DNA of 61,498 nt, filler included, from Deltaproteobacteria bacterium (GCA_016202395.1; 4 parts of 4 records of this genome joined end to end with filler, not necessarily neighbours in it), one strand, 5' to 3'; shown: positions 21,980-30,937, counted from the whole stretch's first letter. Numbers and translations are program-made. The notes: generated by a model not told the origin, from the letters alone.

Positions 21980-24813
21980 AAAAAAGCCATCTAATTTTTC
22001 TTAGCATGTTCTTTGGAAGCGCCGCACTTGCTCAAGAGTCCGCGGATGAATTCAAAACCACGATCCAACAGCGATGGGTCATTAATCCTCACTACGTATC
22101 GGAAGGAAACTTATCGGAAGAAAACTTACATGACGCTATTCGACAAAAGATCCAGGATCTGCAAGCAATACAACAGCAAACCCCAAGTTATTGTCCGAGC
22201 GTCGCGGGTCTTTCCACCGATAATTTAGATATTCCAAGTGCTACTTCCGTTCTTACAACCTGCCTCTGCCCCGGAAAGAAGAAAGAGGATTTAGCAGAAT
22301 GTCTCAATCGCCAAATTTCTGTCTCTAAAAAAAGTGATGGATCACAAGAATTCAATCCCTCTTGGGTTCATCCGGCCTACGCTTTGAAAAAGGATTTTAC
22401 AGGAAAAGAGGATCCTAATAATCTCCAAATCGACACAAACTCTTCGACGAAGGAAACTTTTCTGGAACAGTTATTACAAAAAGGAGAAGGAGAACCGTAC
22501 CGCGTGTTAAACAGCTTAGGGGCCTTTCCCACGCAGGAAGCGACATCGGACCCTCTTTCTTTCTTTTTTATGGGGCATTGGACCGATTGTCAGTTGATTG
22601 ACGAATTCTCTCCCGCCCGTCTCACCGCCTATGACAACATCGTCTCTTCGTCCCATGAGCCGGGAGAAGACACCTTTGTTTATGCCTGTGCCACCCTCAT
22701 CGGGACCATGAATCGGTTTATGGAGGAGACGGGGCGAAGCTTCGACATGCTGGCCCACACGGGGGATTACATCGACACCGGAGAAGAGATTGAGCTCCGA
22801 TGGTCGCTCGCGGCTACCCATGGAGGAGAGATTGAACCTTGCACCGGGTTTTCTAAAAAAGAGGCTCAAGAAGGGAAATGCACACTGAACCGAGATGAAT
22901 GGATGGAGAAGAATCTCCAGAAATTCCAATGGACGAAAGGCTCCGATCAACCCTTTATGGCAGAAGGATTAAACCTAGAGGTTCCACACCTCTACATGTT
23001 TGGGAACCACGATGGGCTGGTGACCGGAAATTTTGCCAAAGACGATGAGCGAGATCCCATCCAAAACACCAACCACCTCCTCGCGCACCAGATCGGCTCT
23101 TTTGTTACATCACCCGAATCGTGCGAAGTTTCGGCTTACGGATACACCTACAGCGAGGCCATTAAGAGGGGAACCAACTTCATCGGTTTTAATCCCATCG
23201 ATCTCACTTTAAGCAACGTTTTAAAATTCTTTGGATCGCTCATTCAATGCGCTCGACAAACGGTTCCCGATTTCAATCTGGCGGATATTGAAATCCCAGA
23301 GTTCGAGGATAGAACCGACATCACTCCAGTCTTAGATGCGATTCAAGGGATGGTTGCGCTGGCCTCCACCGAATCCACACTCGATCGCATCATAGAAGCG
23401 CCTGGGGAAGAGATTGGAATGGAGAAGGTTTTTGTTGGGTACGATGATCGACGAAGCCTCTTGGGGGCAAAGTATGCTTCATCGATGGCCACCTACGATT
23501 TCGATCAACGAAAAGAGACAATAAAAATCATTTTTGAGGCAGGGGGAGAAAACAAAGGGGGTTTTAAGCACAGCCAAGTTTATAACACGGAAACGGGAGC
23601 AGTCGAGCTAGATGAAATAGGAAATCCCATGCATTGCAACGAAAGCATCGCCCAAGAGAAGGTCGCCAACCTCGCTTGTTCTGGATTTTATGCCTTCGAT
23701 TGTCTTGAAGACAGTCTTGTGAATACCGACTCGATCCCTTTACGCTGCATTGCCATCGACACCTTGGGAAATGGCTCCACGATTTCTGAAGGGGCCGCAA
23801 CTGAAATCATGCTGGATTTCCTGGTCGATGAGCTGGACAGGGCGAAAGCAGAGAAAAAACTGGTGTTGGGTTTTTCGCACCATGGACCGGAGAGTTTCTT
23901 TACCAATAATTTAGCCAAACCCCTGGGATTGACGAAAGCCGATTATCCGGAATCGGGCTGCTCCTCGGATGGATGCGCTTTGGTTCATCTGTTTCAACAG
24001 TACGATAATTTCATAGCATGGATTTACGGACATGGGCATAGGAATTTAATTACAGCGTGGCCCAATTCTGAGAAACCCGGGTTCGGCTTCTGGTCGATAC
24101 AAACAGCAGCCGCAGGAATTGCTTGGCCACAAGTCGCTCGAACTTTGGAATTTGTTGATCTGCGCAATGGTGTGGGGGCCATTGTGAACACCGTCATCGA
24201 ACATTATGAAAGCACAGAAAACCGGCCAAGTTATGAGGGAGGTCATCCCTCTTTTGACAATGAGGATCTCCAAAAAAGAGGGCTTCAGATGGCCTACCAT
24301 TCTCGATTGCTTGCAGCCTGGGATGCTTTGATGGGGGAGCATCTAGCTTTCGCCTATGGGAGAAAAAAGGACTCTGAAGGTAAAGAGGATAAAACAGAAG
24401 TACCCACCGTACAGATTTTGACGGTTACAGATTCGAGTCGAACACGGCTCTCTCAAGAAGGGGCTCGCGAGGACCGAAACGTTATCCTTCTATTCCAATT
24501 TCCTGAAGACATTGCTCAAGAATTTTCTCAAATCACAAACGCTAAGCCACTCACCTATCTTGAGTTAGATTTTGACGCTCAAAATAAGATCGATCAAGCT
24601 CTTGGGGAAGCGCCCACCCCTGCTCCTGGCGAACCCGCTGAAGGAAGCCCAACAGAACCTACGGGAGAATCTGAAGAGGAAGGCTGCGGCTGTCAGGTGA
24701 TTGGTGGGGCAACAAATCGGTCTGGAATGGGATCTCTACTCATATCCATGCTCTTATTCTTCACGCCATGGGTTCTATTCCGATTCTCACGAAGAACTCT
24801 GTTGAGAAAATAA
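21976..24813 (+). CDS. secreted calcineurin-like metallophosphoesterase (TIGR03767/03768-like) with a MYXO-CTERM-like C-terminal anchor
   Basis: Signal peptide; TDCQLIDEFSPARL, HTGD, GNHD, SHH, GHGH motifs; Pro/Glu linker then GCGC + TM helix + RR. Confidence 0.75.
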   Translation: MKKSHLIFLSMFFGSAALAQESADEFKTTIQQRWVINPHYVSEGNLSEENLHDAIRQKIQDLQAIQQQTPSYCPSVAGLSTDNLDIPSATSVLTTCLCPGKKKEDLAECLNRQISVSKKSDGSQEFNPSWVHPAYALKKDFTGKEDPNNLQIDTNSSTKETFLEQLLQKGEGEPYRVLNSLGAFPTQEATSDPLSFFFMGHWTDCQLIDEFSPARLTAYDNIVSSSHEPGEDTFVYACATLIGTMNRFMEETGRSFDMLAHTGDYIDTGEEIELRWSLAATHGGEIEPCTGFSKKEAQEGKCTLNRDEWMEKNLQKFQWTKGSDQPFMAEGLNLEVPHLYMFGNHDGLVTGNFAKDDERDPIQNTNHLLAHQIGSFVTSPESCEVSAYGYTYSEAIKRGTNFIGFNPIDLTLSNVLKFFGSLIQCARQTVPDFNLADIEIPEFEDRTDITPVLDAIQGMVALASTESTLDRIIEAPGEEIGMEKVFVGYDDRRSLLGAKYASSMATYDFDQRKETIKIIFEAGGENKGGFKHSQVYNTETGAVELDEIGNPMHCNESIAQEKVANLACSGFYAFDCLEDSLVNTDSIPLRCIAIDTLGNGSTISEGAATEIMLDFLVDELDRAKAEKKLVLGFSHHGPESFFTNNLAKPLGLTKADYPESGCSSDGCALVHLFQQYDNFIAWIYGHGHRNLITAWPNSEKPGFGFWSIQTAAAGIAWPQVARTLEFVDLRNGVGAIVNTVIEHYESTENRPSYEGGHPSFDNEDLQKRGLQMAYHSRLLAAWDALMGEHLAFAYGRKKDSEGKEDKTEVPTVQILTVTDSSRTRLSQEGAREDRNVILLFQFPEDIAQEFSQITNAKPLTYLELDFDAQNKIDQALGEAPTPAPGEPAEGSPTEPTGESEEEGCGCQVIGGATNRSGMGSLLISMLLFFTPWVLFRFSRRTLLRK

Positions 24814-29809: not shown

Positions 29810-30937
29810 ATGTTAAAAATGAGGTTCTTTGTTTCTATTTTTCTGTTGGGTTTATTGTTTGATGTTGGGGTGTATGCCGAGGGCGCTCTTTACTTTCATG
29901 AGGATCATTTGGGGAGCGGGGTGGTGCGGACCGATTCTGGAGGGAAGGTTCGAGAGCTTTTGGTATATACCCCTTATGGGGAAGTCATAATACCCTCTCC
30001 CCAAGGGGGAGAGGGACAGGGTGAGGGGGATTCGTACCTCTACACGGGCCAGGAGTTGGACCGGGACACGGAGATCTATTCCTATGGGGCTCGGTGTTAC
30101 GATCCGGCTTTGAGCCGATTTTTAAGCATCGATCCTATCGAAGAGAATCCCCCGTATTCCTACACCTACAATAATCCGGTGGTATGGACCGATCCGGATG
30201 GCCAGGCTCCCGCTTCGGTGGTGAGGCCGAAAAGCAATCTGGCGTTGACGGCCGGAGAGCTTGCCATCATGAAAGAGGTATACGAGGCGGTGAAGAGAGA
30301 GTTCGAAGGAAGTACCAATGCTCCCGAGGTCGCTCGGCGGCTTAAGAACCAAGGGATCGATGTCACCGATGTAACAGTTAGGAACTATGCCAAAACGGAG
30401 TTTCAACTGAGGCCTCCTCGGACGCCTTATCACAAAGCGAATGCTGAAGCTGAAGAGGTTGTCGCTGCGGCTTTTAAGCATGAAGGAAATCTTACAGCAG
30501 CTAGCAAAGAGCTGCTAACTGCCCGTTCACCGGTTCTTCGACGTCTTCAGAGGCTGAAGGTAGGAGATCATGTGAGGACGATTAATAGATATCGTGTTCT
30601 AGTAGTAGAAGAGGATTTGGGAAAGACTGTCTGGGAGTTTCTGCGGGGAATGTATCCTACTCTTGAAGGAATTGGGATTCCTAAAGGTCTAACATGGGTG
30701 GGTGTTAAAGGAGCTTTAAAGAAAAACTCTGGGGCGATTAGTCCTGCTGCTCGTGATTTAGGAGTTGAACATAAGACTGTACAAGAATGGATAGAAGGGA
30801 ATTACCGTCTTAAGGAGTTTCCCGGTTTAACTGCAGGAGAGCGGCTTGCTCTCTATCGCGGGAATGTAGGGGATCCTCGGAGAAGCGACTGGCGCCGCCC
30901 TAATCAAGATTTTTATGACGAAATGAACCGCCCCTAA
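29810..30937 (+). CDS. signal peptide + isolated Rhs core + multi-HTH cargo (mini-Rhs 5, paralog of mini-Rhs 4)
   Basis: MRFFVSIFLLGLLFDVGVYA signal; core nearly identical to mini-Rhs 4; NNPVVWTDPDG; homologous cargo. Confidence 0.85.
   Translation: MLKMRFFVSIFLLGLLFDVGVYAEGALYFHEDHLGSGVVRTDSGGKVRELLVYTPYGEVIIPSPQGGEGQGEGDSYLYTGQELDRDTEIYSYGARCYDPALSRFLSIDPIEENPPYSYTYNNPVVWTDPDGQAPASVVRPKSNLALTAGELAIMKEVYEAVKREFEGSTNAPEVARRLKNQGIDVTDVTVRNYAKTEFQLRPPRTPYHKANAEAEEVVAAAFKHEGNLTAASKELLTARSPVLRRLQRLKVGDHVRTINRYRVLVVEEDLGKTVWEFLRGMYPTLEGIGIPKGLTWVGVKGALKKNSGAISPAARDLGVEHKTVQEWIEGNYRLKEFPGLTAGERLALYRGNVGDPRRSDWRRPNQDFYDEMNRP
29993..30029. repeat. second copy of the in-frame palindromic element in an Rhs core
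   Basis: Identical to 28755-28791. Confidence 0.7.

Follow-up and report, generated by a model that had tools for sequence, protein, structure and literature searches.

In the current picture, toxins of the Rhs and Tc type enclose the toxic part in a cage, inside which the Rhs-associated core serves as plug and knife. Short Rhs pieces have so far been set aside as silent recombination stock, and short Rhs proteins with few cage strands are known and, according to one preprint, thought to be unexpressed (bioRxiv 10.1101/2024.02.26.582050). The MafB toxins of Neisseria combine a signal peptide, the conserved DUF1020 and a variable C-terminus and are present in several copies per genome. Here we analyzed a 61,498-nt stretch of DNA from Deltaproteobacteria bacterium GCA_016202395.1 (hereafter the window), in which two contigs joined at an artificial N spacer bear five mini-Rhs genes, A to E. 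The layout predicted for their products is a Sec/signal peptidase I signal peptide, an Rhs core of ~105 residues and a hypervariable tail, with no covalent YD-repeat cage. The safest statement is that A to E belong to a genuine family, under selection, of Rhs-core proteins that lack a cage, carry exchangeable tails and are predicted to be exported through Sec; shown below are the architecture, the family itself, the conserved catalytic residues, the polymorphism at the junction and the frames kept open under selection.

Leader and core of the mini-Rhs genes

All five genes lie on the plus strand. Gene A (24813-25925) encodes 370 amino acids (aa), with a leader at residues 1-17, a core at residues 18-121 ending in DPNG, and a C-terminal domain at residues 122-370; it matches TIGR03696 at 81.9 bits (residues 46-121). 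Gene B (26914-27110) is partial, a 65-aa fragment that comprises a leader and the first 43 core residues and stops at the end of contig 1; it gave no TIGR03696 match, being too short to score, but aligns with A. Gene C (27400-28572) starts with GTG and encodes 390 aa (67.8 bits), with a leader at residues 1-23, a core at residues 24-128 ending in DPDG, and a hydrophobic C-terminal domain. Gene D (28554-29711; 385 aa, 70.5 bits) has its leader at residues 1-29 and its core at residues 30-137, followed by a C-terminal domain paralogous to that of gene E (29810-30937; 375 aa, 70.2 bits), in which the leader spans residues 1-23, the core residues 24-131, and the C-terminal domain shows weak helix-turn-helix (HTH)-like matches. 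The open reading frames (ORFs) and the TIGR03696 matches of A, C, D and E (68-82 bits against a curated cutoff of 32.5, within residues 46-138) thus confirm the claim of an earlier, sequence-only reading that there are five genes on two contigs, four of them complete at 370-390 aa. The unrelated leaders ending, in A to E, with VSA, AQA, ASA, VMA and VYA were also as that reading described them, and the core strand, which it placed within about 4 residues, begins 3-5 residues further on. Its Y..DHLGS motif stood for A, B, D and E and failed for C, where the strand reads DLLGS.

The alignment of the cores revealed the shared motifs Y..D(H/L)LGS, Y.P(F/Y)GE, YTGQELDR, GAR.YDP, RF.S.DP and NP....DP.G, with unrelated sequence beyond them; RFxSxDP and PxxxxDPxG were found in all complete copies (A, C, D and E), as had been claimed. 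The Arg of GAR, the Asp of xDP and the Asp of DPxG, which from the work on YenC2 and TccC3 we take to be the self-cleavage residues, are invariant in 39 of 39 family members, and in a set of 150 cores the Arg and the first Asp are invariant and the second Asp is at least 90% conserved. The cleavage-dead TcC-D651A entry, so named in the title of PDB 6h6f, scores 3.3 bits below the wild type over the same aligned range, which is consistent with a self-cleavage role of the conserved Asp. The core profile matches the final ~105 residues of the solved TcC, YenC2, RHS2, SGS1 and type VI secretion system (T6SS) Rhs structures, scoring 55-74 bits with TcdB2-TccC3, YenC2, RHS2 and mosquito SGS1 and 31-41 bits with the T6SS Rhs proteins. 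In Rhs and TcC proteins, this ~105-residue segment comprises the final beta-hairpins together with the self-cleaving Arg/Asp/Asp site. A model of the A core built from 150 sequences reached a predicted local distance difference test score (pLDDT) of 71.7 and a predicted template modelling score of 0.42 and was confident for the first three hairpins only; its top Foldseek matches were without exception chains of Tc, Rhs or teneurin proteins (TMq ~0.5, prob ~1, E 0.003-0.2). The model of the whole E protein (pLDDT 51) was unusable.

The starts of the genes were then considered together with their leaders. The start codon of gene A overlaps the stop of the upstream gene (TAATG), so that this phosphoesterase-like gene is translationally coupled to A. 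A possible alternative start of A lies at 24768, and the 15 in-frame upstream residues are kept in the homologue P0108, which suggests either conserved synteny or an earlier start of A. Shine-Dalgarno-like sequences were found upstream of gene B (GAAGGGG), 4 nt ahead of the GTG of gene C (AAGGGGGG) and ahead of the longer start of gene D (AGGCGAGGG), and gene D overlaps the end of gene C by 19 nt. The earlier claim of ribosome-binding sites or coupled starts therefore holds, by the sites before B, C and D and the overlaps at A and D. Leaders were assessed by a crude signal-peptide test that asked for at least one Lys or Arg, for 8 or more consecutive hydrophobic residues without a charge, and for a small residue at both -3 and -1. 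All five window leaders passed it, as did 38 of 45 proteins (the 43-member clade described below plus C and B) versus 1 of the 39 short proteins with an Rhs core that lie outside the clade. Cleavage is predicted at a median of 7 residues before the D of DHLGS, typically between AxA and EV.Y.HSDHLGS, and neither a Cys lipobox nor a twin-Arg motif was seen in the leaders.

These genes are not remains of longer ones. An in-frame stop precedes each mini gene by 3-46 codons (in gene C, a TAA 3 codons upstream), and, as for upstream neighbors, A is preceded by the phosphoesterase-like gene, B by a vapB-like gene encoded on the opposite strand, and D and E by other mini genes. The upstream stops and the unrelated upstream genes exclude that A to E are truncated full-length rhs genes. 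No YD-repeat shell was found in the window, where five full-length Rhs queries align only through their cores and a coreless shell used as query gave no match; no TcA, TcB or SpvB gene was found there either, and the five window proteins gave no match to RHS_repeat (PF05593/TIGR01643). A Logan contig spans 27281-28724 without differences, including the leader-core junction of C and the C-D junction, but may derive from the same data as the metagenome-assembled genome (MAG) and thus adds no independent support for the organism; around the repeated core, the contigs of this collection are broken into fragments, and the uncovered parts are uninformative.

The family, its tails and split relatives

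A search limited to proteins of 206-657 aa gave 103 short Rhs-core proteins, the closest of which (51-54% identity) all carry a leader directly before DHLGS. Searched exhaustively with the core profile in HMMER, 1.84 billion representatives yielded 248,372 matches, the best 40 of which comprise 28 proteins of 330-420 aa in which the core begins at residue 37 or earlier, 3 window proteins and 9 other forms, among them several giant proteins whose score sums two cores. The giants P0110, P0115, P0128, P0139, P0143 and P0146 (~3300-4000 aa) each contain a pair of Rhs cores, the first near residues 1075-1900 and the second near residues 2950-3630; one of the two-core giants has Tox-SGS and one Ntox10, in a layout that resembles mosquito SGS1.

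A FastTree phylogeny of 234 cores, which left out 13 rows with short core matches and four database copies of window proteins, is coarse (112 columns), and only its supported clade of 43 members was used (Shimodaira-Hasegawa-like support 97). This clade contains A, D and E, 31 other leader-bearing proteins and 9 others, and none of the 41 long Rhs proteins. Among the 9 others, P0124 and P0173 have leaders missed by the filter, P0217 has a hydrophobic N-terminus but a predicted site 32 residues away from the core, P0118, P0135 and P0182 begin within the leader or where it ends, P0166 is incomplete at its N-terminus, and P0147 and P0193 are weak. Gene C sits on a long branch immediately outside this clade, and its nearest rows in a second tree are clade members. 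When the signal-peptide label was mapped on the core tree, 12 changes were counted versus a mean of 37.3 after shuffling, none of the 500 shuffles being as low. Judged from this tree, the leader-core proteins are a lineage-restricted, monophyletic family and not a local accident. The short, signal-bearing TIGR03696 relatives that the sequence-only reading had proposed to look for are thus at hand, as 34 leader-core proteins in the 43-member clade, and the fusion point that it saw shared by different leaders recurs across the family.

The source names, known for a few members, are all 'Deltaproteobacteria bacterium' MAG or 'RHS repeat-associated protein'. Four representatives (P0112, P0113, P0117 and P0121) have neighboring accession numbers, which points to several copies in one other MAG, there being five copies here. 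No leader-core protein was found in 401 sampled genomes of one deltaproteobacterial phylum, 55 of which have core matches of at most 103 bits. Likewise, the best 79 loci of at least 597 stretches in a genome-contig scan with the core profile included no clear leader-core gene; these were at most 46% identical and consisted of ordinary full-length rhs genes and orphans. The metagenome scan listed no member of the 43-member clade among its matches. As to whether the architecture is an already characterized family, no description of a leader-core-only Rhs protein was found in the literature searched, supplementary lists lying outside its reach, and databases name the proteins generically.

The tails, of 190-280 residues, begin right after the DPxG motif, and 39 aligned members carry 34 unrelated C-terminal types (BLASTP 1e-5 over at least 60 aa; the tail of C was cut at DPKG, residues 157-160, and not at DPDG, residues 125-128, and was thus ~30 residues short). 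Five proteins that share the leader MIRWSFIFAL are 62-70% identical through DPxG and 17-27% identical beyond it, and A and its closest homologue, P0108, share 71% identity in leader and core versus 21% in the tail. D and E form the one paralogous pair in the window, and no tail is shared with any protein or locus gathered in this analysis. The tail of E matches Pfam HTH_1 and HTH_30 below cutoff, no other Pfam match being found in the window tails, and had no usable match in the atlas search, which gave the tail of A a weak ParB_N lead (0.86). The tail of A had no relative among proteins of 203-648 aa. The tails of C, P0003, P0138 and P0176 start with glycine-rich hydrophobic stretches.

The D/E pair provided a view of how such genes change. 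Both tails keep open frames despite ~115 differing sites (84% DNA identity), and their four indels (6, 3, 3 and 12 nt) are all multiples of 3 and create no stop. In random-mutation simulations with 126 substitutions, only 1.6% kept the D/E tail frame open. The ratio of nonsynonymous to synonymous substitution rates (dN/dS) is 0.25 in the core and 1.29 in the C-terminal part, and the pattern as a whole would fit diversifying or relaxed change on a frame kept open, not decay. The leaders of D and E are unrelated, their DNA likeness starting at the last leader codon, and A and B are alike only from the core onward. The view of the sequence-only reading that these are not decayed or frameshifted full-length rhs genes is therefore upheld by the open D/E frames together with the upstream stops, the unrelated neighbors and the lack of a YD shell in the window. 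The core loops of D and E also contain, in frame, a perfect palindrome, CCCTCTCCCC AA GGGGGAGAGGG, translated as PSPQGGEGQGEG and resembling a repetitive extragenic palindrome (REP); its two exact matches (28755-28777 in D and 29993-30015 in E, plus strand) compare with 0.05 expected. Metagenome contig breaks and depth spikes at both palindromes indicate a high-copy REP-like element that is tolerated although it lies in a coding loop. P0108, P0133 and P0124 have loops of a similar PLPKGE..GEG form at this core position.

At least six further leader-core genes (L126, L147, L162, L165, L177 and L187) were found in the metagenome scan. They group in the core tree as L162/L165/L187, L126/L147 and L177 alone, and these separate small groups indicate that fusion of leader and core at the same boundary recurs. 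In L162, L165 and L187, the stop of the mini gene is overlapped or closely trailed by a small ORF for a multi-pass membrane protein, a placement like that of immunity genes. The same three loci form a separate small clade of the YY.LTDHLGS type, and L162 and L187 adjoin lipoproteins with teneurin-like EGF repeats. No adjacent shell was seen at L126, L147, L162, L165 or L187. Locus L177 (2401-7426) encodes a 1308-aa shell that bears a leader of its own, DUF6531, RHS repeats and a tail of TSP3 repeats and lacks a core; 12 nt past it, after an AAGGAAG site, comes a 278-aa leader-core-tail gene and then an 84-aa ORF. The locus is collinear with the full-length Rhs protein P0221, the shell corresponding to residues 1998-2473 and the mini protein to residues 2469-2588. 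Just upstream in L177 are a secretin-domain ORF (1316-1903) and a YD-repeat fragment (792-1265). The coreless YD/SpvB shell called for by the sequence-only reading thus has one metagenomic precedent, in L177, and no counterpart in the window.

Export, cages and silent cassettes

On balance, we lean toward the reading that A to E are a Sec-exported, cage-less polymorphic effector family with a MafB-like layout. The precursor would pass the inner membrane unfolded through Sec and lose its leader ~7 residues before the D of DHLGS; the core would then fold in the periplasm and probably cut after DPxG, and this cut would free or activate the tail outside the cytoplasm. From the sequences we infer that the proteins are exported, that the leader is removed, that the core cuts itself and that the tail has a toxic or other activity, and self-cleavage after DPxG is plausible given the invariant residues.

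Several observations weigh against this reading. The canonical Rhs cleavage site is PxxxxDPxG[LWF], and only 3 of 39 members have L, W or F directly after DPxG, so that cleavage is not assured; solved RHS2 and SGS1 also lack L, W or F at this position. The isolated core was modelled only moderately and may not fold alone. The signal-peptide assignments come from a heuristic of our own and not from a trained predictor, and the leader of D is the weakest of the five, with an Arg in its c-region; the public gene call for D (P0002, 360 aa) skips the leader and begins past it, at MVMAEGA. The dN/dS of 1.29 in the D/E tails could mean relaxed and not diversifying selection, and both genes carry the REP-like palindrome in frame. 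Searches for toxin families in the 39 tails gave no match, only weak HTH-like matches being found in three (D, E and P0006), and no immunity-like ORF follows A, C, D or E in the window, as the sequence-only reading had noted in setting these copies apart from orphans with an immunity gene. Finally, L177 is, as read from its sequence, an Rhs split exactly at the shell/core boundary, with both halves bearing leaders and predicted to be exported.

This split bears on a rather doubtful alternative, in which the mini proteins are cartridges for a separately exported, coreless YD shell that is completed in trans in the periplasm. The first core strand would pair with the last strand of the shell, and the tail would be enclosed and cut as in TcB-TcC or Rhs. 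L177 pairs just such a shell with an adjacent leader-core-tail gene, split at the same junction as in the window; in addition, the Tc cage is already made of two polypeptides, the cores are closer to TcC-type chains than to T6SS Rhs proteins, many cartridges per genome would fit one shell with many loads, and the low quality of the model for the core on its own would agree with a need for a partner. However, the window has no shell in its 61.5 kb, the five other metagenomic loci have no shell next to the mini gene, and the mini protein of L177 lies outside the clade of the window proteins on a long branch, in a single locus that could be a disrupted gene. Somewhat less probable still is the broader proposal that cages are assembled after export, a shell being closed by interchangeable cartridges through strand complementation and self-cleavage following, with A to E as cartridges and L177 as a still-adjacent pair.

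That the genes encode exported nontoxin proteins, in which the core would be a self-removing pro-domain or a folding aid for periplasmic or surface proteins, seems to us quite unlikely. The lack of immunity genes in the window is what this explanation expects, no toxin domain was found in the 39 tails, the only tail leads are HTH-like and ParB-like, and gene A is coupled to an exported phosphoesterase-like gene; yet tails that turn over to such an extreme degree behind a conserved N-terminal module are the hallmark of conflict systems, distant leader-core loci have small membrane-protein ORFs overlapping the stop in the style of immunity genes, and several tails have glycine-rich hydrophobic stretches, as in membrane-active toxins. 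Least probable, to the point that we give it very little weight, is the idea that A to E are silent orphan rhs-CT cassettes, a recombination stock for full-length rhs genes elsewhere whose leaders would be chance hydrophobic extensions. It agrees with the view of short Rhs proteins in the preprint cited above, typical leaderless orphans are common among the short matches, the cores of A/B and of D/E are near-identical behind unrelated leaders, suggesting recombination at the core, and the D/E tails have a dN/dS of about 1.3. It is opposed by leaders that pass the test in 38 of 45 cases versus 1 of 39 and keep a fixed distance from the core, by a 43-member clade without long Rhs proteins, by the Shine-Dalgarno-like sites and coupled starts, by the frames kept open and by the lack of an adjacent full-length rhs gene. 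A diversified, selected family with only plug and knife behind a Sec leader raises the question of whether the Rhs core is autonomous or a cage is loaded in trans after export; either answer, if true, would change the view of Rhs-type delivery. The family also adds a pool of tails, of about 200-280 residues, with no assigned fold or activity.

Neighboring genes and relation to known systems

Upstream of A, the phosphoesterase-like gene (21976-24813, plus strand) encodes an exported, metallophosphoesterase-like protein of 945 aa whose TIGR03767-like match (124.5 bits) is below cutoff; it gave no Pfam match, showed no likeness to YD shells and is not an Rhs shell. Its C-terminal Gly-Cys, hydrophobic and Arg-rich tail resembles a sorting signal. 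Two PIN toxin-antitoxin-like pairs flank the mini-Rhs genes, one being Phd/YefM plus PIN and the other a 114-aa ORF of no family plus PIN: a vapBC-like pair lies between A and B (26060-26796, minus strand), and the second PIN-type pair lies 3' of E (30994-31789, plus strand). Cytochrome-maturation and multihaem genes come after the second pair on contig 2; a 939-aa exported multihaem cytochrome with a PKD-like domain (32488-35307, minus strand) adjoins CcmE and a second, small cytochrome, a neighborhood that suggests extracellular electron transfer in this organism. The other window genes are ordinary chromosomal ones (PBP2/RodA, Lon, glutamate synthase, acyl-CoA metabolism and tRNA synthetase), and no secretion system genes were found among the genes of the 61.5 kb.

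The artificial spacer that joins the contigs (27111-27211) consists of N runs around ttaattaattaa. The last 47 nt of gene B, right at the end of contig 1, are identical to gene A, and the assembly therefore broke in a repeat. Gene C is preceded by 188 nt that run into a high-copy repeat where contig 2 begins. This segment (27212-27351) is a high-copy repeat in the source metagenomes, with a summed contig depth of 192 versus ~11 for neighboring genes, which is probably why the assembly broke upstream of gene C.

Compared with Rhs and TcC proteins, A to E have a homologous core with the same Arg/Asp/Asp columns, PxxxxDPxG and a hypervariable tail right after this motif. They differ in having no YD repeats, cage, PAAR, VgrG, SpvB or other N-terminal delivery domain, in the Sec-type leader that abuts the core, in the rarity of L, W or F after DPxG (3 of 39), and in the lack of an immunity gene in the window. 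The TcB-TcC pair is a precedent for a two-polypeptide cage, and the window cores score best with TcC-type chains. However, TcC, which lacks a leader, still contributes one half of the cage, and no TcA, TcB or SpvB gene accompanies the mini genes in the window; L177 adds a further split, at the shell/core boundary.

Orphan rhs-CT modules are of similar size, start near the same DHLGS strand and occur in tandem, but they have no trafficking signal and usually lie downstream of a full-length rhs gene with an immunity gene, whereas the family of A to E has leaders, ribosome-binding sites and a clade of its own without long members. With polymorphic toxins in general the family shares a conserved N-terminal part that gives way to a sharply variable C-terminus around DPxG (62-71% versus 17-27% identity), the difference being that no known toxin domain was found in 39 tails and that immunity-like small ORFs occur only at the distant loci L162, L165, L177 and L187. 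In the MafB toxins, mafI immunity genes come after the MafB genes; the conserved module here is the Rhs core, and the family gave no match to PF06255 (DUF1020). The likeness to MafB lies in the same layout and length class, in an exported conserved N-terminal module with an exchangeable tail, and in occurrence in multiple copies.

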